From the sequence record NC_070872.1: a stretch of 64,000 nt of DNA; one strand, given 5' to 3'. The stretch's first letter is position 1; the number at the start of each line of letters is the position of its first letter. Below, piece after piece: positions 3,271 through 59,970 of the stretch. A program made the translations under genes and the position numbers. Below the pieces are notes generated by a model, which worked only from the letters and a program-made list of their open reading frames with translations, was not told the DNA's origin and did no database searches. Source of the stretch: Escherichia phage U1G.

Positions 3271-3313
3271 ATTCTTGAATAGTTAGATATGTATTTAAAT
3301 AGGAGAAATAACC

Positions 3314-3622
3314 TTGAATGAAATAGTATGTATACTTCCTCACCAAGCTAAAGTAGCTGACAGGAATATACGGGTACATTTACCATTCCCATTAAGTAAT
3401 CCATTTGCTCGTAATGAAAGAACCACGGTAGAAGATATAGAGGTAGCTTATGAGGCTTACCTTCGTAATCGTCTTATTAGTGGTGACAAGTTAATTACAG
3501 CAGAGATGGAAAGGATTGCATCCTTTGTAACAGATAGTACAGGTAAACCCGTTGGTTTAATTGGTACTGAATCTGATGTTAACGTTATTCGTAAAATACT
3601 AATGGAGGCATTAAGCCAATGA
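3314..3622 (+). CDS. hypothetical protein (TTG start)
   Basis: ORF; AGGAG 8 nt upstream of TTG. Confidence 0.5.
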   Translation: MNEIVCILPHQAKVADRNIRVHLPFPLSNPFARNERTTVEDIEVAYEAYLRNRLISGDKLITAEMERIASFVTDSTGKPVGLIGTESDVNVIRKILMEALSQ

Positions 3623-43300: not shown

Positions 43301-46300
43301 TCAGATTACCTTCCAGAGCTTTAGTCAGCTTTTCAGACATAGCTTCACGGGACATGTTATGTACCTTGATACCTAATGCCTGAGCCAGACCTAACTGGAA
43401 GTCAGAGAATGTTTGGCTGTTTTCATTACTCAAGTCAATAGTAGAGAAGGTTGGCAGAATTGCTTCACGAACCAGTTTACTGGATTGTGGATTGTTCTTA
43501 CCTAACATCTGCATACGACCTACACGGGTCATGTTGTAACCATAGTGAATAGGCGTATCCAGACCATTCTCCTGTTCCTGTAATTGATTGATTACACCAA
43601 ACAAAGAGTCATATGCCATAGACACTGACAGGTTCTTACCTTCCAGTGATTTAGCAGTATTCACGTTCAGCAGTTCAGGATTAAGAGTACCAGCACCCAT
43701 CAGTTCCAGAATGTTGTCACGACCTAATGCTTCATAGAAGTTAACCATCGGCATGTGTACACGGAACTCGGTAGCCTGTTCTGCTTTAAGAGCAGCTTTC
43801 TGCTCTGGGGTATTCTTAACAGCAGGGTTACGTAACTGAGTTTGAGCCACGGAAGGAATATCATCACCAAAGTACATTTTCTCTTCTGGTTCTACGAGAA
43901 CAGCTTCCTCGATAGCAGTAGGGAACTTGTTAATGGCATCGTTATCGTCCAGCTTCTCAATAGTATATAGACCAATAGTCTTATTGGAGTCTGGGTCAAT
44001 CTCAGACACATCAAGCATAGATTCTTTAACTTCACCCATCTCAATGAGAGAAGACAGAATCTCTGTAGCCATTGCCATTGGAATACCTTTGGTATAACCC
44101 AGTGGTGCATTTGGATTACGGTCCAAACCCCAGTAAGATTCAATCTTTTGAGCCAGTGAGTTAGTAGCTTCAACCAGAGTCTGAGCATTCTCGAATTCAG
44201 CCAGAATACCTTCTGGTAACAGAGATGCTTCTACACCAGTAATAGCAGCTACGTCTTTCATATCTTTAACAGCAGCATTCTGTGTAGCAGTCAGTCGCCA
44301 TTGCAGACCAGCAAGTACAGCAGTTTCTAACAACTGGTCATTAAACTTAAAGGTATCCCCATCTTTCTCTACGATGTTAAGTAACTTACCACCTACCCAA
44401 CGGTTAGCTTCAGTACCTTCTGCAAAACGTTTACCTACGTTCTTATTAGCAAGGAACTTAGCCAGACGGTCAGACAAAGTAGTCTTCAGAGTTTCGCCAA
44501 AATCAAATAAGTCCTGATAACGCTTAATCACATCACTTGTGAGAGCGTTATTTTCTTTTTGAGTGAATGCTTCAAAGCGAGCAGCAGAAGACAGTGCTTT
44601 CTTAACATCAGTCAAAGGGGATTCAGAACCAATGGTTCGAGACTTAGATTCTTCCGGCAGAGTAAATGCCTTAAGGAACTGGTTCGGTGTCTTGTCATTG
44701 TTATAGACAGGGAACACTGTTTCCATTTGAGATAGGGGTTTACCACCAACGGTATAGTCTGCTTTCAGTTGAGCCAGAGATACCTCTATCTTCTCAACGT
44801 TATTGGTATTACGCCCAGACGTATCTACACCTATTTGAATCAGTGCATTGTTTGCTTCTACGAATGATTGAACAGTATTGAATTGTTCAGGAGTCAGCTT
44901 CTGATTATCAAACAGTTGCAATGATACAAACGGTTGTTCACTGCCTTTATAGAAGGTAGAGCGAATAGCACCAGTATCTAATGACATATCACGATAACCA
45001 TCATGACCAAATACGTCCGACAAGCTAATGTGGTCACCATTAGAGCCAACAACAGTACCGTCAGCAAAGAGCCAAGGACTCTCTTTACGATCACCATACT
45101 TATTAAGAGTATCTTGAGAAATAGTATTCTCTTTTACATAAGCATCTCTTTCAGATTCAGTAGACTGTACATCAGTATCCTGTTTTTCAGACTGGTTCTC
45201 AGGCTCTTTTACAGACTGTGGTTTAGACTCTTTAATAGTAGATTCTGTTTTAACAGCTTCACTAACAGAGGGTTTAGTCTGTACAGTAGAGGTAACTGGT
45301 TCCTGTTTCATAACAGGAGTTTCATCAACCTGATTCACTGGTTCATTGGTCTGTTGAGACTGAGTGGCATCAAGACCACCTTGACGGAACTCTTTAACTA
45401 CCTGGGCAGCAGGCTTGTCCAGACGTGAATCCAATGGGGTAACTTTCACATGAGAAACATTAAGCTCCGGGTAAGCCGTAGCAAGTGCATTAGCAATATC
45501 AGCTACGGTCTTGGCCTCCAGTCCTACTTGCTGGGCAAACTTAACAGACTTGGTATCATACGGATTGACACCGAGGCCAGTACGACTACGTACCCATTCA
45601 CGGGAAGGAGTAAGAGCCTGATAATGGACAGACTTATTCTTATCCGCATTCCCAGAAATCAGATGCTCATTCAACGCTCCGACCTTATTCTGCATGTGCT
45701 GGGCGAACTTCATAAAGTCGTCGAGATAAGCGGAAGCCAAATCGAAGTTACCAGAGTTGTACGCAGAACGAATGCGTTTAGCATGTTGCAACGCAGAGTA
45801 CTGACCTTCATTAGAACGAGACTCGTCGGTTTTAATTTGTTTACTAACAATATCTTGAGGACGTAAGCCTAATTCTTCTGCTTTAGCGTCGAATTCACGT
45901 GCACCCTGTAACAAGGCAGCAGCCGATTGCAGGGCAGCACGTTGTCTATTCCCCAGTGTAATCTTACCTTCACTTGCATGTTTCAGAACCATGTTCACTG
46001 AATCTGCATCCAGTACTTCTGGAGACATATCAGCAGCCATAGCAATGTTGTTTGCTTGGGTTTGGTTAGCTTCTTCAGTAGCTTTCAGTTTACCCGCTTC
46101 AGCCTGCTCCTGAATCATGGAATGAATGGCACGGAATGCACGAAGTACCTTCGGTGTATTCTGAACGTTAGCCATCAGGCCAGAGAACTGGTCAACAATA
46201 TTAGCAGCATGAGAACCTTGTTCCAGGTTAGCCAGAGCACCTGGGTCACGGTTAATGAAGCTATCCATAGACATGATATTGTCATACATCTGGATTGCAG

Positions 46301-48080
46301 CTTCCATTTGAACGTTAGGGTCTTCAGCAGTATTAACCAGGTCAGCCATCTTCTGAATAGCTTCAACACGGTTAGTGGAACCAGAAACAGCTTCACGGAT
46401 TGCTGGGTTAGCTTGTTCCAGTTCTACTGGGTCAAACTTCATTGCCTGAGTTAAGTCAGCAGCATACTGGGTAGCAGCAGCTTTCTCTTCAGGGGAAATG
46501 TCCATTGCATCTACTGCTTCCTGTACAGTTTCTTGTGCTTGCTCTGCCTGAGCAGTAGCTTCTTGTGCAGCAGCATTAACCGTAGCATCTGATACAGGAG
46601 ATGCTTGTTCATTACGCTTAGCAACTTCTTCACCACGTTGAACCAGAATGTTAGTAATAGGAGAGGCTACTTTTGCTAGTGCCTTACCAGCCAGAGAAGC
46701 ACCAGCCAGGGTAGTACGTACAGCAGGACCAACGGCAGCACCAGCAGCCTTAACAGTTGCACCAGGAGCTTGAGCAACTCCAGCAGAACCAAAGCCGTAC
46801 AGTGCACCAAGACCTGCTTGTTCACCGACACCTTTAAGCAAATCACGCTTAGCATCTACATTACCTTGAATTGCTTTATTCTGTGCAAACTGACTAGTAC
46901 CAGACTGAATACCTTCTTCTACGGTTTCACGGAGCATGTTAGAGCCAGCACCAGCCAGTGAACCTACCTTAAGTGGGTTAAGTTCAAATTTGGATACCAG
47001 TGGACCAGTAGCAGCAGCAACTGGAGCAGTTAATCCAGCAGCAATGATACCTGTTTCAGATGCAGTCTGACGACGTGCTTCTTCAGGAGATAAGCCATCT
47101 TTAATATGTTGTTGGTATACAGGAGATTTGGCAGCCAGTTCACTAAATGGCATTTCCATAATTTCATTAGCAGTCTGTTGGTATGCACCACCTGCTTCCA
47201 TGCCACCAATTGCAATAGCAGGTGCAGCAACACGACCAGCAGACAATGCAACCTGTGCAGGACGAGAACCTAATTCAGCAGCTAAGGTAATACCTTTAAC
47301 AGCTTTATCTCCACCTACCATTACTTTGCCAAGTGCAGATACACCACGGATAAGAGGACCACCAGTAAACAGAGAACCAACACCTTCACTCAGCCCGTCA
47401 GAAGCAGCCATACCATTATCAAGTGTATTAGCAACAGAATCAAAAGCATCACGACCAATGCGAGACAGAGAGGCAACCAAACTGCTCTCCCCATTTTTAA
47501 TGTCTTCTTCATAGAGTTTCTGGTTCTTTTGTGCAGAAATCTGGTTCTGATTCTGAACAACCTTACGGGTAGCATTCAGTGCATCAGACTGTAGGTTGTG
47601 TACACCTTTGTTCAACCAGTCAAGACCGGAAGCAATGGTTGCCCCGGCATTATCATTGACCAGACCTGTGCCAAGAGCAGCAATACCCCCAAGGGTATTA
47701 GCAACACCAAGACCAACACCAGAAAGAGTATCGCCAAATGCTTCTGCGTTAGTACGTTGTTTAGATAAGTCCTGACGTACAGCATCAGCAGCATTAGCTC
47801 GGCTATTAAGAATCTGTAGACCTTGCTCATTACCATATTTATTAAGAATTTCTAATGGGGAGGCTTGAGTGAAATCTGCCTGAAGTGAACCTGGTTCGAA
47901 TGCACCGATTCCAAGATTACCTACACGACCAGTTTGGAGATTGTAAGCATTCTCTGGGGTTAATTGGAAAGGGCTTTGCCCTTGTGCAGCTTGCTTCTGA
48001 GAGGTTGCAGTAGAGACATCGACTTGCTTAGCATTAGTGATGCTGTCTGCGAAACCTGCCAGACGGTCAAATGTTGACAT
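37326..48080 (-). CDS. virion-encapsidated RNA polymerase (giant vRNAP, N4 gp50-like)
   Basis: ~3584-aa ORF at the promoter-distal end of the late operon; size and position match the N4 vRNAP; ATG 48080 preceded by AGGAAA (longest ORF starts TTG 48098). Confidence 0.75.
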   Translation of the reverse strand: MSTFDRLAGFADSITNAKQVDVSTATSQKQAAQGQSPFQLTPENAYNLQTGRVGNLGIGAFEPGSLQADFTQASPLEILNKYGNEQGLQILNSRANAADAVRQDLSKQRTNAEAFGDTLSGVGLGVANTLGGIAALGTGLVNDNAGATIASGLDWLNKGVHNLQSDALNATRKVVQNQNQISAQKNQKLYEEDIKNGESSLVASLSRIGRDAFDSVANTLDNGMAASDGLSEGVGSLFTGGPLIRGVSALGKVMVGGDKAVKGITLAAELGSRPAQVALSAGRVAAPAIAIGGMEAGGAYQQTANEIMEMPFSELAAKSPVYQQHIKDGLSPEEARRQTASETGIIAAGLTAPVAAATGPLVSKFELNPLKVGSLAGAGSNMLRETVEEGIQSGTSQFAQNKAIQGNVDAKRDLLKGVGEQAGLGALYGFGSAGVAQAPGATVKAAGAAVGPAVRTTLAGASLAGKALAKVASPITNILVQRGEEVAKRNEQASPVSDATVNAAAQEATAQAEQAQETVQEAVDAMDISPEEKAAATQYAADLTQAMKFDPVELEQANPAIREAVSGSTNRVEAIQKMADLVNTAEDPNVQMEAAIQMYDNIMSMDSFINRDPGALANLEQGSHAANIVDQFSGLMANVQNTPKVLRAFRAIHSMIQEQAEAGKLKATEEANQTQANNIAMAADMSPEVLDADSVNMVLKHASEGKITLGNRQRAALQSAAALLQGAREFDAKAEELGLRPQDIVSKQIKTDESRSNEGQYSALQHAKRIRSAYNSGNFDLASAYLDDFMKFAQHMQNKVGALNEHLISGNADKNKSVHYQALTPSREWVRSRTGLGVNPYDTKSVKFAQQVGLEAKTVADIANALATAYPELNVSHVKVTPLDSRLDKPAAQVVKEFRQGGLDATQSQQTNEPVNQVDETPVMKQEPVTSTVQTKPSVSEAVKTESTIKESKPQSVKEPENQSEKQDTDVQSTESERDAYVKENTISQDTLNKYGDRKESPWLFADGTVVGSNGDHISLSDVFGHDGYRDMSLDTGAIRSTFYKGSEQPFVSLQLFDNQKLTPEQFNTVQSFVEANNALIQIGVDTSGRNTNNVEKIEVSLAQLKADYTVGGKPLSQMETVFPVYNNDKTPNQFLKAFTLPEESKSRTIGSESPLTDVKKALSSAARFEAFTQKENNALTSDVIKRYQDLFDFGETLKTTLSDRLAKFLANKNVGKRFAEGTEANRWVGGKLLNIVEKDGDTFKFNDQLLETAVLAGLQWRLTATQNAAVKDMKDVAAITGVEASLLPEGILAEFENAQTLVEATNSLAQKIESYWGLDRNPNAPLGYTKGIPMAMATEILSSLIEMGEVKESMLDVSEIDPDSNKTIGLYTIEKLDDNDAINKFPTAIEEAVLVEPEEKMYFGDDIPSVAQTQLRNPAVKNTPEQKAALKAEQATEFRVHMPMVNFYEALGRDNILELMGAGTLNPELLNVNTAKSLEGKNLSVSMAYDSLFGVINQLQEQENGLDTPIHYGYNMTRVGRMQMLGKNNPQSSKLVREAILPTFSTIDLSNENSQTFSDFQLGLAQALGIKVHNMSREAMSEKLTKALEGNLKPAVDMMVEFDKSGHLPANAVDILKTSLGGDKSFVALMALMEYARYLNSDDRANFNTPLYVEADGVTNGPINAMVLMTGGRFTSDWIKNTAKGGLFFGKAGKTMNEHRSQDDSVDLYEASTNGLQQALNELRTTYRNNVPVMNQMNHLQKLMDLFIKDFNLNEDGTLDLKRGIAKNPLTITIYGSGARGIAGKMVSAITDTIYERFSDVLQARAADPSISPAMAMFGKEAASEADAQAMLDTFLTSMEALTGNVPVMRKGQLSIQQVEGALTGKLDPQKFTVSGNALKNLQENMLHLFVEPMRTGIRNTVGEGLMHSTENLQKATQIQSLVLQDMFQQAVQAKLAEKEKDPTWKKGDFLTQKELNEIQESLSPLAPMIETGSQTFYIAGSENTDVANQVLATNLDDRMRVPMSIYAPSQAGVAGIPFMTIGTGDGMMMQTLSTMKGAPKNTLKIFDGMNIGINNITDASRKANEAVYTSWQGNPIKNVYDSFSKFMKNVDFSKLSDETKQAIAKSALEYDQREGATDDLLRIGAEQIERNLRNIALGVDIRHKVMNQVQTTVDQMAAVGAPYVNNGKISLEGLTVDQQVAKLNELFDAELNKRRDAVRAAKAEPVKEVPAMEQVGRVLKSGVRLLSNTAISKLAKEMSPEQQAVLKEVQKSLAAKDYKVVYGTPSQLDAYAIEKNITRPAPEDIEAAEAGNAYGWTNFEDKTIYLVTPSLETLVHELVHASTFESVLAHYEGTPNEAVQNIEDLMNQFRALDVKDESPAVREAYADALNTINGHLSNGFIEPAMAKAAALNEYMAWGLTNRELISKQKKTTALKTMVQAVYEAIKRLVFGRKKAPANADDMFSGLLFNSAVVMRGQAPTAAVAKDTTLFHNKAYGDNTRLEELGKTFDKLITDYIGSEPVQQVIRKGKFSDAVVNATKVTRDVQAHGFTMNMQEQRLFTNIVAALATEAAINPAALARAQEYYTHVTKNLTVEAFMADPDSTNPADRYYAQQKFDTIMGANNIEFDAQGRSSLLPTFVGLAMVSEEVRKVLADIPVMKADKQSGNTVDAMLTNIGTAAMASLNARVAGDTKATNVQEGMDALAQTIMQTSLNAQSFYDSVATPSGNAIDRANQYLVDSIDVLSTRALEGAREVAANTKNPLVKGAAHAAQLIAAIATEKNGEIVAEGVMAAMNQGKVWQPFHDLVNDLTGRTKSNASVYDLIKAVRAQVQADRQQFREHLPTTIASKFSRKLTNDEWKAMHTGMGKTDLAVLRDTMSLAEIRDLLTDQKIVDREVNKLEADLQKQAGRNWPLISRKSKQLAQYMINGTVGNNLLRNATAISRMLGERQSARSTVDVAQLDKLITLYALEAMSKTDREMLSSLAQTETEGMDFATSYLVGQRKDEMAKAKSDTRATLNQYKGYIPGETKQGVNLIVAEDSQFADLIEKSYVRLGTYQGSSANRGPARSYYFAPVQAQAPFSQGILQNVRNTAGGVDLGTGFTMGTMVAGRITDKPSVDRITKALARGERGNEPLLPVYDANGNVVAYEQSIDPNMLKHIEGENHLARAIGVWRGRQVEEAKAQRFNDMLIENLHSMYENDIKMSVSNKSQYVNLLGSKLDPVTADALKLMNSETRQKAESLFGPGELWVRRDMLNDALGYRAASVGDAWSGNSRWSPETLDTFKKAMLGVFGNRAYKYVMGGENLVQNLVKEAKTLIVVKSVVVPAVNFLANLYQMVARGVPVKNIAKSIPQKTAEINQYLKSRLRQVDAEAELRAATNPNQIRKLKAEIQSITDSHKRMSIWPLLEAGEFSSIADAGIGRDDILITEGKLHEYMDKLADKLPKSVRNAGRYALITKDTALFQGIQKTVEYSDFIAKAIIYDDLTQRKGKTREEALGRVTEEFINYDRLPGRFRGYMESVGLMWFYNFKIRSAKIAVSMIRNNPVHAAMAILAPTPTMFGNVGLPIQDNIFSIAAQGNLGYSWGFGQGLRAHNLNPWLNLTN

Positions 48081-48142
48081 AGCATGTTTCCTGTTCAAAC
48101 TTATATCGTATATAGGAAGCTTACTCTACAGTAAGCCTGTGT

Positions 48143-48174: not shown

Positions 48175-50138
48175 TTACCGATTTTGTCTTGGTTGCATAT
48201 ACTCAGGCAAACCTTGTGCCTGACGTAGGTAACGTGCAGCACGTTCTTCATCTTCCTTGGCTCGTGCTCTGTCCACACTAGCCTGTGACCGAAAACCTCT
48301 TGGAGCCAGGTTATCTGGGTCTGCTTGTACTTGGGCTTGTGCAGCTTGTAGCATTGCAGCAGCTTTAGTAACAGCCTCCTGACGAGCAGGTAACAATGCA
48401 GTAAGACCTGTTTGTCCAGTGTTAATCTTGTTCTGGGTATTTGTCAGTGCAGCTACAGCAGCATCATAAGCAGTCTGTGCTGCCTGAATATTCTGCATAG
48501 CTTGAGCACGTCCGAGATTACGTACACTGCCTTCCAGTGGTTCGCCTCGTTGTACACCCTCAATTAACTGATCTACCAGACGGTCATTAAGACGCATACC
48601 ATTACCAGCTTCATTAGTAATGAATGGGTTAACTGCATCAATAGCACGGCTAATGTACCCTTCTGGTACACCGGTCTGTGCACGTTGCATAACAGCAGCA
48701 GCCATAGCTGGTGACATATTTCCACGTTGAGAAATATCAGTTAGTCGGTTAAGTACCCAGTTACGGTCAGCACCCTTAAAGTCACCATCCAGTAGACGAT
48801 TAGCAATCTCACCTACTGGAGTATTATCGGTAACAGTACCCAGGAAATCGGTATTAAGACTACCAGTGTTATCCTGCATAGAACGAGTACCAATCATACC
48901 TTGAGCCAAGGTAGATACTGCCCGATTTCCCTGATTATTCTGAATCAGAGCGAATGGGTCAGCACCTACTTCAGCTTGAGCAATAACAGGTTTAATCTGT
49001 TCCCAAGTCATATCCTTATAAGCACCTGGGGTAGAATTAGGTAAAGCAGCCCAGGTATCTTTAAGGTTACCATTCTTACGAGCCTCAAAAATAGCCTTAC
49101 CAATCTTCTCCTGGTTTTCAGGGGAAAGAGGCTGATTCTTCCAATCTGAGCCAAGAACTTTGGGAGCAAAGTCTTGCAGAGTAGCCTGGTTAATCTGGAA
49201 TGCACCAACAGGGGAAGCACCTTGATTTGTCTTCATGACATCCTGGTGTTTAATTACATCACCTATACTCATTTGAGTAATAGGGGTAGATGTACCAGCA
49301 AACTGATAAGTAACATCATAAGGAGAACCCTGACGAGTACCAGCAGTACCAGGAGCAGATGTAGCACCAACATTATTGCCGTAAACACCAGGGTATGCAC
49401 GAGCAAGCATTTCCTGTAAACGTGCCTGAGCAACTGGAGACAGATTCTTACTATATGCTTCTGCTAACAAACGAGCATCATTAGGGTTCTCAGCACCACG
49501 GGTAATTTGAGACATCACACCCATAGCTGCCTGACTATCAGCATCATTACGTTGAGCCACACCCAAATCAAAACGGTTCTGTGCTTGGTTAATAGCCTGA
49601 CCACCCTGCCCTTGTAGACGACTTAACATATCCAGTTGTTGGTCAGCAGGTAGTGCAGATAACGCTTCTCGCGTCTGACCCAATGCAGCATTAATACGAT
49701 TCTGGTCACCAGACTGATAAGCCTCGGACAATAAACGAATAGCTGGGGATGCATTATCTAATGCAGAGTCAGTATTCTGTAAGCGACCAAAACGATAAGC
49801 ATTATAGTCATTGGTTCCCTGCTGACCTTGTTGAGTCAGAAGAGTACCTGCTCGTTCATCCAGATTCTGGAGAGTACGCTGACTTACCAATGAAGGGTCA
49901 ACCCCTGAAACAATGCACCAGATGCCAAAGCATTACGATACTCAGTAGGGTCTTGATACTGCATAGCATTCATCATGACGGCATTGCCAGCCTCCTGCTT
50001 GGCAGCGTTCTGGAAATTACCCAGTGCATCACTTAAGCCGGAGGTGGCATTACCAATCATGTTGCCAAATGTGCGAATGCTGTCACCAACTCCGGAGAAG
50101 TTAGGTGCATAAACATTACGCCATGTAATTTGAGCCAT
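48175..50138 (-). CDS. internal virion protein (N4 gp51/52-like); two ORFs in this assembly
   Basis: 571-aa ORF has only a TTG start with no SD and 7-nt overlap with the 84-aa ORF; +1 nt in C4 (49902-49905) fuses them (~654 aa). Confidence 0.45.
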
Positions 50139-50150
50139 GATGGTTTCCTA

Positions 50151-50594
50151 TTAACGGGTTAATTTATTAGCTGCAATATAAGCATCAGCTGAGGACTGGT
50201 CACGGTTCTCTGCTGTAGCACGACTACGAGCACGGTCTTCCAATGCAGTGTTATAGGATTTAATCTGATTATTCAGGTTAGTGTTAGTAACACTCTTAGT
50301 AAAGTTCAACTGGTCTTTGGCTAACTTATTAGCCTGGAAACCACTATAGATATTCGCTAATGAACCAAGTGCACCCAGTCCTAACTGGAAGGTAGGTACA
50401 TTCAAGCCCAACTGATTAGCTGAACCAGACATGAAAGAAGCAGGTGTAGATGTACCCAAATTCGTACCCATACCAATAGTTGCACCTGGGTTATAGTTCA
50501 TAGCCGGGGTATTAAAGTTCTGATTGTTATTAGGCATCCAAGACATAGCAGCTGGCTGTGGAGTTGGGTTGCCTGTTAAGAATGACAAATCCAT
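50151..50594 (-). CDS. virion protein (hypothetical)
   Basis: ATG preceded by AGGAGA; late-operon context. Confidence 0.5.
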   Translation of the reverse strand: MDLSFLTGNPTPQPAAMSWMPNNNQNFNTPAMNYNPGATIGMGTNLGTSTPASFMSGSANQLGLNVPTFQLGLGALGSLANIYSGFQANKLAKDQLNFTKSVTNTNLNNQIKSYNTALEDRARSRATAENRDQSSADAYIAANKLTR

Positions 50595-50607: not shown

Positions 50608-53262
50608 TTAAACAAGGTCAGTATTAAGAGTCATATCAGAGTAGTTGCCAACCATGTCTAAGGACAAGTCAGCTATATCTGAACCAGTCATGAGAGTACG
50701 TGATAGGAAAGAATCCAACGACTCCATTGACACGAATTGCATAGGGTCAATTACACCCTGTCCAGCAGTACCAAACATTTCTTCATACTGCTTATTGATT
50801 GCCATCATATCAGTATTGTACTGCTGCATTACTTTCTCTGCTTTCTGAATAGTAGCAGCCGTGGATGCATTAATATACTGACTAATACCATTACCAACTG
50901 AACTGGTAAGCTGCATGATGTTTTGGGCATTCATCATTTCACTTGCCAGAGTGGACAAAGATGTACCGGTAGACAGGGCAGTACCAACATTCATAGCTAC
51001 CATTGAAGCAATAGCTGCAATGATAAAGCCTAATTTATCACCGAACAGTGCGGTAGATACTTTAGTAACAATAGATATCAGAACCATTGCAGCAATAGCG
51101 TTCGCTACAGCACCAACAATAATGGCAGCTAATCCAACAAAACCAAGTGATGCACCAACTGCACCATATGCCCCCAGTATACCTGCACCACCAGCACCAG
51201 CTGTAAATACAGAGACAACCACAGCAACCACTACAACAACAATCTTAAATGCTCCTGTCTGATACCACTTCTGCTTAACCTTCTTATATGAGTTCATCAC
51301 TAAGTAGGAACAGGCAGTAGATAGCTGAGTACTTCGAACCAGCGACATGGAACGGTAGATATTAGTGTGCAGTGGGATAATGAATCCACTCTCCTCTGCG
51401 TCACCCATTGCTTCAGCAACATCAATGTTCACTGATTTATTTTTATATACCCTGTTATTGTGGTTTAAGCCTAGTACCCTGAGTTTACGATAGGTGTCAT
51501 TACCATCCTGCCAAAGTAACTCGTACTCCTGCATAGAATAAAATGTAGTAGTAACCTCAAGCTTCTTAGTTGAGCCAGAGTTACTAGCAGTACGTATGTT
51601 CTTACGAGTAAGAGTTATATCTCCTGCATATCTGGCTCGGAGTTGTCCCTGCTTAGCACCAGACCATGCTTGTCCTGAGTGGGTAGTTTCAGATACGTAA
51701 TTCCAACCAATGGTCATGTCATACTTGTAATGCTTATTACTATGTACCCTAAATTCCCTCTTAGGTATTACAGGGTATTCTGGCAGTGGTGAAGGAGTTC
51801 CAATAGTATGCCCTTCAGTCCTGTTCCACCATTCTACGTAAGCATCAACTGCATCGTTTGCTGCCTGATAACCTGCAATTACTGCTTCCAAAGTCGGGTA
51901 AGTTGGGTCAGGTGGGAATGCTTCAGTAGCCATCTGAAAGAAACGGTAGATGTATTCTTTAGCAGTATCCTCTGGAGTATTAAGGGATACACCAAATGTG
52001 CCATAAATGTACTGAATATCACCTATGTCCTTATTCTTCTTAAGCTCTGTGACTACTTTATCAATTTTTCCACCAGTAGCTTTATAAAGAGCTTTCTTAC
52101 AGTGGGGGTAGATTGGGTCATTCTCTACCCATTGTTTATCATTCCTAATTGGAATGAATGGGTAGAATCGGTTATCGGTAGCTTCAGTTTCAAACAGTGA
52201 ATCCAGTGCAACATTACCGGAGTTCTGTTTATAGATAAGCATTTTGGGTGTACCAACAGCAGTCATCTCAGTGTCAGTACGAGTAGTTTGGGATGAGTAC
52301 TTACGAACCTGTGTCTCTGTGGTTGTAGTGATTGTATCTGTACGTGTAACACCACCACCTATATCAACTACATTAGTAGTTACAGAAGTACTGGATTGAA
52401 CCTCACCAAACTTTTTATGAGTCATTACCCTGTCAGATACAACTACAGTCACATCATCAGGTTTCTCAGTGAATCCTCTACGGTAAACTTTAACGTAGGA
52501 GTTCCAGTTATCCACACTTGGTTCAGTAACAGTACTGTCCTCATCCGGTCTGCCATCAGAGTAAACAGAATGAGTATGTATAGTCTTAGTAAGATTGGTT
52601 GTGTTAGCAGTCGTATCACTTGAGATTGTAGTCCATAACAAAGTGGAAGGTAGGTCATCCTCCTTATCATAAACAGTAGTCGGTCCTACTACTGGTGGAT
52701 TAGTAGAAGGGGACTTATAGAATGTGTAATCAGCATAGAGATATAAAGCACCTGGTTCAAAGTTAGCAGGTGTGAATTTAATAGTAGAACCTCCATCTAA
52801 AGAGGTCATAGTAATTTCATTAGTATCTTCATCAATGTCTATGTCGAATCGTTCCATGATTCGACTTGGAGCATTCTCATAAAGATACTGGTCACACCAT
52901 TGCTCAAAGTCAGCAAAGCCTATCTCTGCTGCCTGAACATAGACTGATTCTCCAGCAGGTGGTGTAATTTGCCCTTCTATAACAGTAGGGTCAATCTTAG
53001 CCAGTACACCTAATGAAGAACCAGCCATACCAACTTCTGAATCATAGTGGTTCTTACTCCAGCTGGAGAACAGTCGCATACGAATACCCGGCCCATTCAG
53101 ATAACTATCAGAGATAGTGTCTGCCATAGTGAATCCAGTATTGGAAACAATGTTACCAATGACAACAGTCTTCATATAGTTTGGGCGTTTATGTATATCC
53201 CCTGCCATGTTATAGACAGAGGATGCTACGTATACTTTGGTCTTCCCACTGAATAAACCCAT
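50608..53262 (-). CDS. large virion protein with glycine-zipper transmembrane segments (putative ejection/channel protein)
   Basis: 884 aa; C-terminal hydrophobic run VVVVVAVVVSVFTAGAGGAGILGAYGAVGASLGFVGLAAIIVGAVANAIAAMVL. Confidence 0.45.
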   Translation of the reverse strand: MGLFSGKTKVYVASSVYNMAGDIHKRPNYMKTVVIGNIVSNTGFTMADTISDSYLNGPGIRMRLFSSWSKNHYDSEVGMAGSSLGVLAKIDPTVIEGQITPPAGESVYVQAAEIGFADFEQWCDQYLYENAPSRIMERFDIDIDEDTNEITMTSLDGGSTIKFTPANFEPGALYLYADYTFYKSPSTNPPVVGPTTVYDKEDDLPSTLLWTTISSDTTANTTNLTKTIHTHSVYSDGRPDEDSTVTEPSVDNWNSYVKVYRRGFTEKPDDVTVVVSDRVMTHKKFGEVQSSTSVTTNVVDIGGGVTRTDTITTTTETQVRKYSSQTTRTDTEMTAVGTPKMLIYKQNSGNVALDSLFETEATDNRFYPFIPIRNDKQWVENDPIYPHCKKALYKATGGKIDKVVTELKKNKDIGDIQYIYGTFGVSLNTPEDTAKEYIYRFFQMATEAFPPDPTYPTLEAVIAGYQAANDAVDAYVEWWNRTEGHTIGTPSPLPEYPVIPKREFRVHSNKHYKYDMTIGWNYVSETTHSGQAWSGAKQGQLRARYAGDITLTRKNIRTASNSGSTKKLEVTTTFYSMQEYELLWQDGNDTYRKLRVLGLNHNNRVYKNKSVNIDVAEAMGDAEESGFIIPLHTNIYRSMSLVRSTQLSTACSYLVMNSYKKVKQKWYQTGAFKIVVVVVAVVVSVFTAGAGGAGILGAYGAVGASLGFVGLAAIIVGAVANAIAAMVLISIVTKVSTALFGDKLGFIIAAIASMVAMNVGTALSTGTSLSTLASEMMNAQNIMQLTSSVGNGISQYINASTAATIQKAEKVMQQYNTDMMAINKQYEEMFGTAGQGVIDPMQFVSMESLDSFLSRTLMTGSDIADLSLDMVGNYSDMTLNTDLV

Positions 53263-53263
53263 A

Positions 53264-54106
53264 TTAGTTCAGCCCGTTGTTAGATTTCAGCTTGGTCAGA
53301 ATGGTATCAATACTTGCATTGGTGAAACCATTCGGTGGATTCAAGCCTTCATCAATAGTCTTCTGAGTAATCCATGCATCAGTAAACAGTTTAGATGCCT
53401 TAACTTCTGCATCACGTTGATAAGAAGTAATCTGTTGTGAGTACAACTCTTTCTGTTTACCAACAGAACCAGTAACAGTAGCCCCGTCACTACGGGTATC
53501 CAGTGTCTGTGCACGTTGTGCTTCGGTCTGTTCAGTAAGCAATTTAAGCTGTTGAGGTAACATCTGGTCAGCATTAAACAGTGCAGCACAGTACGTTTCA
53601 GACTCAGTAGCAATCTTCATCTTAGTAAGAGCATACTCACTCTTGGCAGATAGTGCCTGAATCTTAGCCAGTACAAACTGTGCTTTAGACGTTGCCAGTT
53701 GAACACGAGCAGTAACTGCCTGAATCTGTGCCATAGCAGCAGCCCAGTATGCCTGGTCACGACCAAGTAAGAACTGAACAGCATTGCTCATGCAAGATTC
53801 CATCATAGCAATATATGCTTTGGTATATTCACCACCAGTAATACGGTTAGCCTTAAATTCAGCTTTAAGGTGATTGTGTGCAGATTCCATTAATGCATCA
53901 AACGTACCACTACCACCTACTTCACGGGTAGTGAGAGATTCATTGGATATTTTATCAATAGCACCAAAGATAGGGGAAGCATCCCCACCTGGGATATCCC
54001 ATTCAGGACCGGTCATATCAACATCAGGAAGGGTAAAGTCATCACCCTTAGTTAACTCTTCAAGGAGTCGGTTAGCTTCTACCTCAGCAGAACAAGACAT
54101 AATCAT
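53264..54106 (-). CDS. virion structural protein (hypothetical)
   Basis: ORF between capsid and internal-protein genes. Confidence 0.45.
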
Positions 54107-54882: not shown

Positions 54883-56085
54883 TTACAGAGGAGCAACAGT
54901 CTTAATCATAGCCAGACGTTCTGGGCGTTTAACCAGGATACCGTAGTACCACTTGATAGAACTGAAGCCAGTTTCACCATACGGGTCATTACGGTCAGCA
55001 GTTTCTTTACCAGGCATCTTAGTCATGATGGTGAACTTAACAGACTTACCATCAGTCTGGAAGCCAATGGTAGAGAAGGAGTCATCACCAACTACCAGCA
55101 TCGGGAATACATCATAGTGTTCCTGACCAGATACCATAGAAGTACGATAACCCGGGTTAGAAGAAACTTGAGCACCAGCACCTGCCCAATGCAGCATCTC
55201 AGGAACCTGGATAATACGGAACTTATCAATGCAACCGATTTCACCATTCATCAGAGTACCGGCATCAGCATAGTGCTGAACTTCGATGAATGCTTTATTA
55301 CCGAACAGGTCTTTCATCGCTTTCAGTTCTGGAACCAGTTCAGAACCAACGTACATTACACGAGTACCACCGAGTACTTTGGTATCGGTAAGTTTAGAAC
55401 CAGTGATGATAGTAGTCTGGGTCGGGGTACGGTTCTCAGTAAGAATCTGGTCAAGACGCATCAGGTTCTTATAAGAAACTACAGACGGGGTAGAACCTTC
55501 ACCAGTGATGGTAGCATCAGAGGTAGCAGCACCTGCATACAGTACAGTACCAGCAGCAGCCAGCAGGTCTTTCTGGAGAACAGCTTCGGTCAACTGTACA
55601 GCACCGTTCATCAGTTCACGAGACAGGTGTTCTTTCAGTTGGTCATCAGAATCAAAGTCCAGAGACTCTTGGGTAAATTCGTAGAAGAAGCCGAACTTAT
55701 GGATAGAACCTTCACGAGCCAGACGAGTGAAACCTACACGGTTAACACGACCACCATTCTCTGTCAGCAGAGGCAGTTTAGAAGTGATGTTACCGACGTC
55801 TTTGGAAGAACCGTACAGGTTACCGTTAACGATGGTAGCACCATTAGCATCAATACCCTGGTCGTTAATGTTCTTATCATCGAGCAGAGGAACGTACTCA
55901 TACACCTTAACAGTCTTACCGTAGTTCTTCGGCATGTTAACGGTGTTAGCCAGAGGCATAAAATACTGGTCTTTACGGGACTGAATAATAGCCTTCTTCA
56001 GCCAGTAATAGGTATTCATCTGGTCGGAACCAGCACCATCAATGCTAGATTTCTGACCGTCAATTGGAGCGTTATAGTTTAACAT
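54883..56085 (-). CDS. major capsid protein
   Basis: 400-aa ORF downstream of the scaffold-like and portal genes; size and position match N4 gp56. Confidence 0.6.
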
Positions 56086-56101: not shown

Positions 56102-57322
56102 TTAAAGACTACCCGGTACTGGGAGTTTAGCGAAATCTTCGTCACTCATAGCGAGTGGGTTTACAATAGGCGTTGCTTTACGTGTAGCAGCCCGATTAAG
56201 GGAAGCTGCTTTAGCTTGCTCGTTGTTAGCCAGAGTCTGCTTAGGTTGTGCTACACGCACTACCGGCTGAACCGCTGGTTTAACTGCTTGTACTGGTTCA
56301 GGCTTAGCTACTTGGTTAAATGCTCCCTGTTGTGCAAGGAGATTGCCAACGTAGTTATAAGCCTGAATAAACGGAGTACCTACCGGAATCTGACCTAACA
56401 TTTGAAGACGATTCACTTCGTTAGCAATGGTGTCATAAATACCATTCTCACGCTGTTCGTGAATCGTATGGAGTAAGCCACGATTCTGATAAAGAGCATC
56501 TTTACTGGCAGCATCCCATGTCGAGCCAATAACACCTAATGTAGCTTGTCCTTCTTGAGTAGACTTTAAGTCGTCAATTTCGGTTGCAAAATCTGCTTCG
56601 GTGTCGGTAACACGGTGATTGCCACCCTGGTAGTTAATTTCCTCATCTGGGTTAAAGTCCAGAGGGTCTGTACCAGAGTCTTTGAGCAACTTCTTAATGG
56701 CCTCAGGATTCTTCTTATCCAGGTCAATCAGGAAAGAAAGTTTGTCCTCATCCATTAAACCGTTGTTCTGTAACATCAGCATTACCTTACGGTATGGCTG
56801 TAGTTCTTGCATTTTGCGAGTATAGTTAGCACCCATCTGCATTAGGCTAATGGCCTCCTCCGGTGAACGGGGAGTAATCATTTTGCCGTTAGCTTTAAAA
56901 GGAGCCATCAACTTCTCGTAACCTTCCTTATAGTTGAAGTCAGCAGGCAGACCTTCAGACTGTTTGCCTTCTTCTTTCTGTTCCTGGCCTGGTTCAGCAG
57001 TAGAAGGTTCAGCTTTAGTAATCGGCTTACCGTTACTATCAACTTCTGTGTCAACAACTTTATCATCAACTTTATCAGAAGTTAAAGAATTTGCTTCATC
57101 TTCTTCAACTGGTTCGGTTTCAGGGGAGGTTTCTTCGGTTGGTAGGTCTTCAACAGCAGAGGTGTCAACTTCTTCATCAGGAGTCTGTACGCCGTTGGTT
57201 TCAGGGTTGTTCTGAGTGGAAGTATCTTCCTCAGCGATAACTGCTGGGGCTTCCATATTCAGAATCTCATCATCCGACATTGCGAGAATGTCGGAAGCTG
57301 TGGTTGCAGCTTCCGTAGTCAT
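56102..57322 (-). CDS. putative scaffolding protein
   Basis: Highly acidic N-terminal region; between portal and capsid genes. Confidence 0.35.
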   Translation of the reverse strand: MTTEAATTASDILAMSDDEILNMEAPAVIAEEDTSTQNNPETNGVQTPDEEVDTSAVEDLPTEETSPETEPVEEDEANSLTSDKVDDKVVDTEVDSNGKPITKAEPSTAEPGQEQKEEGKQSEGLPADFNYKEGYEKLMAPFKANGKMITPRSPEEAISLMQMGANYTRKMQELQPYRKVMLMLQNNGLMDEDKLSFLIDLDKKNPEAIKKLLKDSGTDPLDFNPDEEINYQGGNHRVTDTEADFATEIDDLKSTQEGQATLGVIGSTWDAASKDALYQNRGLLHTIHEQRENGIYDTIANEVNRLQMLGQIPVGTPFIQAYNYVGNLLAQQGAFNQVAKPEPVQAVKPAVQPVVRVAQPKQTLANNEQAKAASLNRAATRKATPIVNPLAMSDEDFAKLPVPGSL

Positions 57323-57699: not shown

Positions 57700-59970
57700 T
57701 TACAAGTTCATGCCAAGAGCCGATGCTGGGTCTTGGCTAGGGTCATAGAATTGGGAACTAAGTGAATAAGCTGGGTCTTGTTGTGCAGCTAAGTCACGTT
57801 CTGGTATAGAGTTCCCGTTAGTCAAAGCGTTATATCCAACAGCAGCAGATATGTTGGGGGTAGTTTCACCTTCTTTAGTAGGTGTTGTCAACGCCTTAGT
57901 TATCTGAAGGTTTTGGTTTCCTTGGGATTGTGCTTTTTGTTTTTCCATATCACGAGCATGTTTAGTACCAGATTCCTGTTCCAGATAATCCAGGTCTTTA
58001 AGGTCACCACTAGAAGCAGCTTCTTTAGCTTTAGCATTATTGAGTGCAATCTTACTTTGTAACTCTTCATTCTCAAGCTGTGCTTTCTGAATTGCCAATT
58101 GCTTAAGCTGTTCTTCCATAGGGTCTGGTTGTGGTTGCCAAGTACGTAACTCATGAGCAAGGTCTGGCATACGTTTAAGTTCTGCAATCTTAGCTACAAG
58201 AGATAACGTAATAGACTGGTCAACTGTGTTGCCTAGTGTTTGAACCATGAAGCCCAAATCCTGGGACTTCTGGTTATCAATTTCAGCAGTGTTAATATCA
58301 ACCTCAATATCGAAGTTACCTTTAAGGTCTTCACGGTTAATTTCTACATACTGTTCATTAGTAATACGTACCACTTCCTTCTCAGATAAAAACACAGCAT
58401 TCATTGCACAAATTTTAGTACCAATGTCTGCCATACCCTTAGCTAATCGACGAAGGATTGCCATCTCACGTTTGGATGCTGCATCTAGTACACCACGAAT
58501 ACCAGCAGCTACATCACCGTAAGCTTCCCCAGTTACACCACCTGAGAATGCTTTAACACCAGTTAGTGCTTCTGCTTCCTGGTTTTGCATCTGAGTCATT
58601 ACTATTGCCGATTGAGGTAACTCAGGGAACTTATGTTCCATGATGGCCTGACTAGGATTACCCTGCATTGGGTTGTATTCATAGTCTTGCCCATCATCAT
58701 ATCGACGACGGTTCAGGGTATCTAACATCCCTTTAGGGTAACCACGTTGACCATTTGCACTTCGACCCAACAGGTCAATCATCCCACGCATGGTTGCACC
58801 AAGAATTGCCTGGTTATCCCCCAACAGTTCAGCATCAGCTTCACCGTAGAGTTCACGTTTACGGGGCATATAAGGAACAACTACCAATGGTAACTTGCCG
58901 TCAGGAAATGGGTTCTTCTCCATACGAATAAGAGTAGAACCAATCCAGGTAGCAACAATTGGTTCCAGTGAACCATCATCGTTAATGTCGTAGAATCCCC
59001 AATACTCATAAGCAATTACTTTCTTGCGAAGTGCATCCTTAAACTGGAAGTCACCAGGAGTTTTACTTTCATGGTCTGGGTCAGTCATAGGACTGGAACT
59101 TTCCCAGTCAATCTTATCCAGGTTGTGATAACGGTCTTTGTTCTTCATGAGGTCTGCTTTACATGTCTCAAACGAAATGACTGCATACAAAGCCTTATCC
59201 AAATCACCATTACAGCTTGGATCAATAACTACGTTATTGGGGTTAAGCATTTCAACGGTAGGTCTGTTAACCAGTGCTTTCTCTACTTCTACTTCAGTAA
59301 CCCCCGTCTGGATTGCGTAAGTAGCTTCCCCGGTTTCATTGAAGTAGTTAACAGCTTCTTTAATATCTTCCGGCATCGTCTCGTCATACTCACGAGGATT
59401 CTCTGCCTGAAGCTGCAAAGCCTGTTGAAGAACATCTGCTTGTTCCTGGTTCTCAATTGGATACAACTGGAAAACTGGAGTTTCTGTTTTAATCTTAACA
59501 GTCTTACGCTCCCAGCCAATACGAGCAATACCAGTACCATCATCTACGACACTATGTACGTAATCGTCTACCAGTTTTACTTTATTAAGCTGAGTACGGA
59601 ATTGGTAGTTAAGAACTAATTCATTCTGACGTGCAGCTAATTCATCTTCAAAAGTAACAGGAGTTACTTTAAAGAGTTTATTAGACGAGAGGAATGGTTC
59701 AGACAATGGTGCATAACGCCACTCTGCCTGACGGCGAACCAGTCTAGGTTGAACTTGCGAACGTCCTTTAACTTTGGGTGGTTTAGCCTTACCCTTAACT
59801 TCCATCAAGTCATTCCACTCACGAATCTGAGCCATGATTGCATCGTGAGCAGGTTTAGCTGATTCCAAATCACCTTTCAGTAATTGGATACTTGGTTCTT
59901 TCTTCCAGTCCGTTAACTTCTCTGATTGAGCCGGGTCTGGTAAAGGCTTAAAAGTGTCTTGGTGTTCCAT
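57700..59970 (-). CDS. portal protein
   Basis: 756-aa ORF upstream of scaffold and capsid genes; size and position match N4 gp59. Confidence 0.55.

Follow-up and report, generated by a model that had tools for sequence, protein, structure and literature searches.

The window analysed here, a stretch of 64,000 nucleotides from Escherichia phage U1G (NC_070872.1), comes from a Gamaleyavirus (G7C/St11Ph5-like) genome and contains a complete gene encoding a protein of 884 aa, located between the genes of a gp54-like tail tube and a gp52-like ejection protein (Table 1). The gene was found exactly at the position given in the earlier note, on the minus strand, which that note had not specified. According to the ORF list and the translation, it has an ATG start and a stop codon at 50608-50610. 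A single nucleotide separates the start ATG from the TAA that ends the tail-tube gene upstream. The start is sound because family members share a conserved N-terminus, MGLFS.KTK: in 40 homologs M1 and F4 are invariant, and G2 is present in at least 90%. It should be mentioned that a plus-strand ORF of 115 aa (50915..51262) was rejected as an artefact, being a stop-free stretch exactly antisense to the Gly/Ala/Val-rich GCN/GGN/GTN codons; we found no independent support for it.

The neighbouring genes were identified by their PHROGs and PDB matches. Their order, gp54, gp53, gp52, gp51 and gp50, is the same as in N4 and St11Ph5, with intergenic gaps of 1 nt and 14 nt. When compared with PDB by phmmer, the tail tube matched the Moo19 chain 9d80_C (E=1.8e-148), Gp54 of N4 (9lc0/9yf4/9yft, E=2.4e-123) and also the tail tube gp75 of DEV. 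The gp52-like product matched the '16.5 kDa protein' 9yf4_OA (E=5.8e-44) and the 'N4 gp52-like protein' of DEV (8vxq); its start is likely the ATG at 50594, which follows an AGGAG. The gp51-like gene is split by a 1-nt deletion, with the frame change at a G-run near position 49,900, as revealed by tblastn and blastn against St11Ph5 gp51. The syntenic counterpart of the giant ORF in St11Ph5 is annotated as 'virion RNA polymerase gp50'.

Table 1. Genes and protein segments at the putative tail plug locus of phage U1G (positions in the window; aa, residues of the 884-aa protein).
Feature	Coordinates	Strand	Basis
Tail plug gene, N4 gp53-like (probable), complete	50608..53262	minus	ORF list, translation, PDB/PHROG matches
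N-terminal half of the predicted 'hydrophobic knot', aa 29-56 (YMKTVVIGNIVSNTGFTMADTISDSYLN)	53095..53178	minus	homology, 1:1 with N4 29-56
Predicted 'beta-feather', aa 211-334, four very long antiparallel strands	52261..52632	minus	AF2 model
Basic/aromatic collar, aa 660-673 (KKVKQKWYQTGAFK), preceding the hydrophobic region	51244..51285	minus	conservation
Hydrophobic region, first half, aa 674-720, corresponding to the C-terminal knot half (N4 670-716)	51103..51243	minus	alignment
Hydrophobic region, second half, aa 721-775 (NAIAAMVLISIV..LFGDKLGFIIAAIASMVAMNVGTALSTG)	50938..51102	minus	hydropathy, conservation
Polar C-terminal tail, predicted helical, aa 776-884	50611..50937	minus	conserved end motif ES.D.FLSRTLMTG
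gp54-like tail tube gene (structure probably sealed by the plug)	53264..54106	minus	phmmer against PDB, phrog_2050
gp52-like ejection protein gene	50151..50594	minus	phmmer
gp51-like ejection protein gene, two ORFs	48175..50138	minus	phrog_6126
Giant virion RNA polymerase gene (gp50-like), ejection cargo	37326..48098	minus	3590-aa ORF, synteny

In the phmmer search against PDB the 884-aa protein matched the chain 9yft_FA ('Gp53', E=0), with residues 1-883 of the query aligned to residues 1-883 of the chain, and also 9ze4_M ('N4 gp53-like protein'). A tblastn search with N4 gp53 revealed 55% identity over 890 columns. The match to phrog_2220 covered its full length (positions 1-847 of 850); PHROGs gives no function for this group. 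The whole protein had no match in Pfam, and separate Pfam searches with the C-terminal 225 aa and the N-terminal 335 aa yielded only ABC2_membrane_2 (E=0.05) and A30L (E=0.09), both far below the cut-off; an NCBIfam search of the 884-aa protein gave nothing meaningful. In related records (St11Ph5 gp53 and most other phage records among the matches listed) the gene is named "hypothetical protein", some GenBank homologs are labelled 'membrane protein' or '4 transmembrane helical domains containing protein', and we found no literature specific to G7C gp53.

Homologs of the protein were detected by mass spectrometry in the virions of N4 (gp53; PMC13434306), LIT1 (gp74; PMC3715699) and Moo19 (gp70; PMC11654681). 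These data and the structures 9YFT and 9ZE4 bear out the suggestion of the earlier note that a virion protein of the ejection or gating apparatus is encoded here, and the comparison with N4 gp52/53 that it proposed proved to be the right choice; the protein is the full-length gp53 ortholog. In our judgement, the 884-aa protein is very probably the N4-type tail plug of a Schitoviridae/Gamaleyavirus podophage, orthologous to gp53 and holding a hydrophobic cork in the tube. The annotation could accordingly be changed from "hypothetical protein" to "tail plug protein (N4 gp53-like)".

The N4 protein gp53 was identified as a single-copy tail plug by cryo-EM (PDB 9YFT; Bellis et al., Nat Commun 2026, PMC13434306). 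A folded part of about 660 residues lies outside the tube, and residues 29-56 and 670-716 form a 'hydrophobic knot' of six short helices, which corks the tail tube, a gp54 dodecamer, from inside; the tube, sheath and plug show a symmetry mismatch of 12:6:1 (PMC13434306). The gp53 model ends at residue 724 (728 in the U1G protein), and the last ~160 residues are located in the tail lumen, where copies of gp52, the outer-membrane channel former, lie above the plug (PMC13434306). In Pseudomonas phage DEV, a single molecule of the plug gp74 (PDB 9ZE4) likewise closes a tail tube of 12 subunits (12:1) and is held laterally by the receptor-binding fibre gp56-gp55-gp54, which binds LptD (PMC12892993).

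The U1G protein is close to N4 gp53 in its length (884 vs 885 aa), in being alignable with it end to end and in the position of its gene, and it shares with gp53 the N-terminal knot segment, the beta-feather, the basic/aromatic collar, the hydrophobic region (70% identity) and the C-terminal motif. Both knot segments of N4 are present and conserved, as aa 29-56 (71% identity) and aa 674-720 (70%), whereas the exterior segments within aa 57-335 are the most diverged, with 40-43% identity. This difference fits a part of the plug that must match a conserved tube. The sequence match with DEV gp74 is strongest over the C-terminal hydrophobic module; this plug differs in being 740 aa long and, when structurally aligned, about 14% identical, and it is devoid of the feather-shaped beta-sheet present in N4 gp53 (PMC13434306).

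AF2 modelled aa 1-665 with confidence. The beta-feather is predicted with strands at residues 211-234, 241-269, 272-300 and 306-334 (pLDDT about 85-93), and the fold of the globular core is common to the solved plugs and the 884-aa protein, the comparison with N4 gp53 being sequence-based. Residues 666-884 were not placed in the AF2 monomer (pLDDT 31-50; 31-48 for aa 721-775), as would be expected for a segment folding only inside the tube.

The C-terminal module is well conserved. It occupied the C-terminal position in all of the 150 best of 1164 representative clusters and was found in other subfamilies too, including Ithacavirus UTK0001 and Pacinivirus JA-1. In the collar, W666 and F672 are invariant and K663, K665 and Y667 occur in at least 90% of the 40 homologs; the motif recurs as KAKWYQTGIFK in UTK0001 and KLKWYQTGIFK in JA-1. 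Invariant residues of the C-terminal tail are E847, F852, R855, T856 and G860, and its last segment always measures 37-38 residues; UTK0001 carries FFARTL as the equivalent of the end motif.

The hydrophobic region described in the earlier note, about 100 residues rich in Gly, Ala and Val, is real: it is nearly charge-free, extends over aa 666-775 and is TM-like by Kyte-Doolittle hydropathy, and the peptide quoted from it is present verbatim at aa 675-732. Windows of 19 residues with Kyte-Doolittle values of at least 1.6 span aa 666-765, with values up to 2.5 in the first half (aa 674-720) and the maximum of 2.59 in the second half (aa 721-775), which contains a conserved LFGDK loop and is 69% identical to N4. 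The 60 residues of aa 674-733 contain no D, E, K or R and consist of 25% V, 23% A and 17% G; a second charge-free run comprises aa 744-774. With a simplified Hessa scale of approximate values, the insertion energies were near zero or negative for aa 674-696 and 711-733 and about +2 for aa 745-763. The hydropathy of aa 674-696 and 711-733 is fully compatible with insertion in a bilayer, a property necessary but not sufficient for a channel role. No other product of the structural module came near this maximum: the 19-residue maxima were 0.75 for gp51, 1.14 for gp52 and 1.76 for one weak segment of the vRNAP.

This region is kept in the 40 homologs, down to 35% identity, with W666, F672, G694, G697, G703, A713, G717, N721 and G745 invariant and the distance from W666 to G745 nearly constant (78-86 residues). 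The feature has been explained already, since its first half corresponds to the known cork in the N4 tube.

The glycine-zipper character ascribed to the hydrophobic region in the earlier note did not stand. Transmembrane glycine zippers, which Kim et al. are said to have described in PNAS in 2005, reportedly follow the pattern (G,A,S)xxxGxxxG. The plug region is similar to them in having small-residue-rich hydrophobic helices of a kind that can pack very closely; however, it shows no enrichment of the period-4 Gly pattern, and the conserved glycines of aa 674-733 are mostly spaced by 3. In aa 665-780 GxxxG was observed twice vs 1.8 expected from shuffles, which rules out a classical zipper, and within aa 674-733 we counted six cases of GxxG and one of GxxxG. 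Only the broader pattern small-xxx-small-xxx-small was modestly enriched (13 vs 6.9 +/- 2.6, shuffle fraction 0.02).

The following working of the plug can be proposed. One copy would cap the distal end of the dodecameric gp54 tube, with the globular core and the long beta-feather (aa 1-665) sitting outside. Residues 29-56 and 674-720 would fold jointly into a compact, small-residue-rich knot of short helices, which would sit in the mouth of the tube as a cork that retains the DNA and the ejection proteins. The Gly/Ala/Val richness and the GxxG spacing may allow the helices to pack tightly and to be buried inside a protein tunnel, which would explain the resemblance of the sequence to transmembrane helices. 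From the knot, aa 721-775 and the tail would run up the tail lumen beside the luminal gp52 copies; the tail (aa 776-884) is presumably luminal and may represent the proposed 'ripcord'. Contact of the receptor-binding apparatus with the host would displace the plug sideways, its C-terminus would be pulled out, and gp52, then gp51, then the vRNAP and DNA would exit. We infer the ripcord step from a published proposal: the authors of the N4 study suggested lateral displacement of the plug with its re-binding, and a 'ripcord' C-terminus (PMC13434306). Orthology, synteny, conservation and hydropathy are our own observations on the 884-aa protein; the one-copy state, the hydrophobic knot, the position of the C-terminus in the lumen and the retention on empty particles are taken from the N4 and DEV structures and would hold for this phage too, all structural statements on the U1G plug being transferred from the 55%-identical N4 homolog.

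Another reading, which we consider unlikely, keeps the plug role and adds a later one: once released by the receptor, the conserved C-terminal ~210 residues (cork and luminal tail) would come out of the tube before any other polypeptide, insert in the outer membrane or extend as far as the inner one, and there fasten the tail or start the formation of the gp52 pore. The hydrophobic region would then have a membrane phase, which comes near to the idea of the earlier note. In G7C-like phages, apparently devoid of the N4 sheath clamp, engagement of the receptor or LPS by the tailspikes would release a plug held mainly by its cork, and the cork, the second stretch and the FLSRTL tail would insert in the outer membrane as a pilot that positions or nucleates the gp52 pore; this version also seems improbable to us. 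If it were true, the virion's most TM-like sequence would serve as a genuine membrane segment during entry. The functional analogy behind this reading is provided by siphophage tape-measure proteins such as T5 pb2 and lambda gpH, whose TM-like segments are soluble by burial in the tail tube and come out first on ejection; for pb2, membrane insertion and fusogenic activity were reportedly shown by experiment. Tape-measure proteins are multi-copy, span the whole tube and set its length. To our knowledge, they are not homologous to gp53, and we know of no such membrane activity of gp53.

The membrane-pilot reading agrees with the three to four segments above the classical hydropathy threshold, two of them with near-zero or negative insertion energy, with the lysine-rich collar KKVKQK placed before the first segment as at membrane interfaces, and with the plug far exceeding every other protein of the virion module in hydrophobicity, gp51 and gp52 having no segment above the threshold. 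The strong conservation of aa 721-775, beyond the knot, and of the C-terminal motif also speaks for it, as does the position of the C-terminus in the exit path of N4, ahead of gp52 (PMC13434306). The N4 bilayer experiments can be read both ways: they covered gp52 and gp51 and not gp53, and it is for gp52 and gp51 that channel activity was measured (PMC13434306). However, a channel of ~35 Å cannot be lined by one copy, and the N4 virion shows short Gly/Ala-rich helices, not spans of 20 residues (PMC13434306). Moreover, the density of the N4 plug, knot included, does not differ in strength between full and empty particles, for which displacement and re-binding were proposed; according to the authors' own caveat, the empty particles had been emptied in vitro (PMC13434306).

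The role suggested in the earlier note, that of a membrane-inserting component conducting the vRNAP into the cell, is not supported by the data on the N4 plug. It would imply a multi-copy ejection protein stored in the particle and expelled to build a trans-membrane vRNAP conduit, like T7 gp14/15/16, and would suit both the TM-like hydropathy and the location of the gene next to the gp50-gp51-gp52 ejection cassette. We regard it as highly improbable, and it is already contradicted for N4 and DEV: N4 gp53 is an external single-copy cap kept on empty particles, the DEV homolog has the same single-copy stoichiometry (PMC12892993), and experiments assign the trans-envelope channel to gp52, gp51 and the N-terminal domain of gp50 (PMC13434306). 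That the protein has no part in the virion and acts in the inner membrane of infected cells, for instance in lysis or exclusion or as an assembly scaffold, a reading favoured by hydropathy taken alone and by the 'membrane protein'-type names of some GenBank homologs, can hardly be credited and was ruled out by virion proteomics and synteny: homologs occur in purified N4, LIT1 and Moo19 virions and in cryo-EM maps, the gene belongs to a late structural operon with tail tube and ejection genes on either side, and the lysis genes are located elsewhere (gp60-63). The TM-like stretch of the plug should not count as evidence of a membrane protein, and it shows that TM predictions based on hydropathy have to be taken with caution, as they may pick out segments whose burial is in a protein tunnel and not in a bilayer.

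The tail needle of P22 (gp26) and Sf6 closes the tail channel of short-tailed phages and is removed on receptor engagement, as the plug must be. It is a trimeric coiled-coil needle in the gp10 hexamer and has no hydrophobic cork. Neither a sequence nor a fold relation between the needle and the plug was revealed, the needle being absent from the fold-search matches. As an analogy for the tail plug, it was named in the study of DEV (PMC12892993).

In N4, the clamp on the plug is formed by domains D9-D10 of gp65, the sheath/receptor-binding protein (PMC13434306). When N4 gp64 and gp65 were used as tblastn queries, neither the 64-kb window nor positions 30415-72444 of St11Ph5, the right arm of this related genome, contained a match (E<=1e-3), and the same search did match gp53, gp54, gp67 and the N-terminus of gp66. 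Since no gp64/gp65 homolog was found in the window and in this arm, at least the anchoring of the plug and its trigger must differ from those of N4. Two questions of biological interest here are how the plug is held and released in tailspike-bearing N4-like phages and what role the conserved residues 721-884 play. In St11Ph5, the tailspike genes gp63.1 and gp66, whose products are candidate anchors of the plug, stand where N4 has gp64/gp65, and the relatives St11Ph5 and PGN829.1 carry their tailspike genes in the part of the genome that lies outside the U1G window.

The window covers most of the genome of a Gamaleyavirus (G7C-like, Schitoviridae), and Escherichia phage PGN829.1 shares 95.5% identity with it over 20 kb around the gene under study. 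According to the ORF list and its translation, this gene is an ATG-started ORF of 884 aa; the coordinates 50608-53262 reported in the earlier note are exact, the strand is minus, and the peptide quoted there corresponds to aa 675-732. The ATG begins 1 base past the stop of the upstream gene, and the ATG of the next gene, preceded by AGGAG, is located 14 nt past the gp53-like stop. The genes around it make up the canonical late block of N4 (see table).

Late-block genes surrounding the gp53-like gene
Gene product	Coordinates	Strand
gp59, portal	57700..59970	-
gp56, major capsid protein	54883..56085	-
gp54, tail tube	53264..54106	-
gp53-like, gene under study	50608..53262	-
gp52, ejection protein	50151..50594	-
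gp51, ejection protein	48175..50138	-
gp50, 3590-aa virion RNA polymerase (vRNAP)	37326..48098	-

The product is 97% identical to the "hypothetical protein gp53" of phage St11Ph5. A comparison with N4 gp52/53, suggested in the earlier note, revealed that it is the ortholog of N4 gp53 (55% identity) and that a separate gp52 gene is adjacent; the protein is already known, and this is its ortholog from a sister genus. In the PDB sequence search, 9YFT chain FA ("Gp53") matched over the full length (1-883 to 1-883, E=0); chain M of 9ZE4 ("N4 gp53-like protein") matched less strongly, mainly in and around the C-terminal hydrophobic module. No family for the protein was found in Pfam or NCBIfam; its PHROG group, 2220, is labelled "unknown function".

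Bellis et al. (Nat Commun 2026; PMC13434306) modelled residues 9-724 of N4 gp53 in the "tail-gating complex", using an asymmetric map at 3.6 Å. A single gp53 copy plugs the 12-mer gp54 tail tube, its last ~160 residues vanish into the tail lumen, and its core is held by D9-D10 of one copy of gp65, the sheath/receptor-binding protein (PMC13434306). Since one gp65 copy clamps the single plug, tube, sheath and plug stand in a 12:6:1 mismatch. In DEV, tube and plug stand at 12:1: gp74 forms the cap, and a receptor-binding fibre of gp56-gp55-gp54 holds it in place (PMC12892993). Homologs of gp53 were detected by mass spectrometry in virions of LIT1 (PMC3715699) and Moo19 (PMC11654681), and in the Moo19 study the tip of the tube showed a weak plug density that was left unassigned (PMC11654681). 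Together with the N4 and DEV structures, these homologs support the assignment to the virion, specifically to the gating apparatus.

Using an alignment of 40 sequences, we mapped the hydrophobic knot of N4 gp53 inside the tube (residues 29-56 and 670-716) to aa 29-56 and 674-720, and the last modelled residue, 724, to aa 728. The hydrophobic region therefore splits in two: by this mapping, its first ~47 residues would be the tube cork, and aa 721-775 (~55 residues) with the polar tail 776-884 would be the luminal part. Identity to N4 is 70-71% in the two knot segments, 69% in N4 717-775 (~aa 721-779 here), 60% in the last ~110 residues and 40-43% in the exterior segments (aa 57-335), a pattern that would agree with a part fitting a conserved tube.

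In the 40 homologs, whose identity goes down to 35%, W666, F672, G694, G697, G703, A713, G717, N721 and G745 are invariant on the side of the hydrophobic region, as are E847, F852, R855, T856 and G860 in the C-terminal tail; the W666-G745 distance is 78 to 86 residues and the last segment has 37-38 residues. The basic/aromatic collar (aa 660-673) plus hydrophobic module was also revealed in other Schitoviridae lineages, namely Ithacavirus UTK0001 (775 aa) and Pacinivirus JA-1 (702 aa), and the FLSRTL-type C-terminal motif is clear in UTK0001, as FFARTL. Searched exhaustively with HMMER, aa 640-884 by themselves gave 1164 representative clusters at E<=1e-3 (454 at E<=1e-30); among the best 150 of the 1164, the module is C-terminal in the host proteins, most of which are either ~700-760 aa (feather-less, DEV-like) or ~880-910 aa long. 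AF2, run with the 40-sequence alignment, confidently predicted aa 1-665, including the beta-feather, whose four strands at 211-334 are very long; only low-confidence helices (pLDDT 31-50) were obtained for aa 666-884, as would be expected if this segment folds only inside the tube.

The Gly/Ala/Val-rich hydrophobic feature pointed out earlier is real and conserved. Kyte-Doolittle 19-residue windows (KD19) of >=1.6 cover aa 666-765, with a peak of 2.59; no other protein of the window's late structural module comes near this value (maxima of 0.75 in gp51-like and 1.14 in gp52-like). There are no charged residues in aa 674-733 (Val 25%, Ala 23%, Gly 17%), and aa 744-774 form a second charge-free run. 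On a simplified Hessa scale, segments 674-696 and 711-733 score ~0 to -1 kcal/mol and 745-763 ~+2. The "glycine zipper" did not hold up: GxxxG occurs at chance level in aa 665-780 (2 observed vs 1.8 expected). The conserved glycines in aa 674-733 are mostly spaced by three residues, and mild enrichment was seen only for a loose small-xxx-small-xxx-small pattern (13 vs 6.9 +/- 2.6).

The published plug model, transferred by orthology, is very probably the correct reading and the best supported one: the TM-like sequence would be a cork of short, small-residue-rich helices that pack tightly inside a protein tunnel, with the luminal tail coming after it. The 2025-2026 N4 and DEV literature already explains both the gene product and its hydrophobic region. 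It is unlikely that the released C-terminus additionally inserts transiently into a membrane as a pilot. Its hydropathy is membrane-competent, it leads the exit path, residues 721-884 are conserved with no role assigned so far, and the planar-bilayer assays, which recorded channel activity for gp52 and gp51, left out gp53 (PMC13434306); however, N4 empty particles keep the plug, with the authors' own caveat that they were emptied in vitro (PMC13434306). A membrane conduit for the vRNAP, as proposed in the earlier note, conflicts with a plug that is present in one copy, has a large external domain and stays on emptied particles, and also with the channel activity assigned experimentally to gp52 and gp51. 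The N4 trans-envelope channel is attributed to gp52 in the outer membrane, gp51 in the periplasm and possibly the inner membrane, and the gp50 N-terminal domain (PMC13434306). These roles follow the body text; the abstract, which has gp51 form the complex in the outer membrane and gp52 the tunnel through the periplasm, states the opposite of the Results, Discussion and Fig. 8 legend.

The anchor of the plug differs from that of N4. By tblastn, no homologs of N4 gp64 and gp65 were found in the window or in the St11Ph5 right arm (30415-72444), while the same search finds N4 gp53, gp54, gp67 and the first 73 residues of gp66; St11Ph5 gp66 is conserved with N4 gp66 over these 73 aa only. Where N4 has gp64/gp65, St11Ph5 and PGN829.1 carry the tailspike genes gp63.1 and gp66. 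Therefore, the N4 tail-gating clamp is absent in this genus, yet the plug core and feather are retained. A tailspike component may hold the plug, in analogy to the fibre of DEV and to the single side appendage, gp66-like, of Moo19 (PMC11654681).

Several other features of the region should be mentioned. The only other virion-module segment above the hydropathy threshold (KD19 1.76) is located at aa ~3301-3322 of the vRNAP, in the C-terminal domain of this giant polymerase. A plus-strand 115-aa ORF (50915..51262) exactly antisense to the Gly/Ala/Val-rich coding stretch was rejected as a gene and regarded as a compositional artefact (local AT skew +0.22 to +0.25, GC skew -0.14 to -0.26). The gp57-like protein (56102..57322, minus strand) matches PHROG 2120, 'tail length tape measure protein', a label that RefSeq also gives to N4 gp57. 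A tape measure would be unexpected in a phage with a short tail, and so would the position of its gene between those for capsid and portal; the label probably reflects a misannotation passed on between records. For gp52 (minus strand), the mechanical ORF list takes as start codon a TTG at 50615, which overlaps the gp53 stop; the AGGAG-preceded ATG at 50594, giving 147 aa as annotated in St11Ph5, is the likelier start. Finally, the gp51-like gene is interrupted near ~49,900, which leaves ORFs of 84 aa and 571 aa; compared with St11Ph5 gp51, intact at 648 aa, one nucleotide is missing from a G-run (TTTCAGGGGGTT to TTTCAGGGGTT). Either this is an error of sequencing or assembly at a homopolymer, or an essential gene is truly frameshifted.
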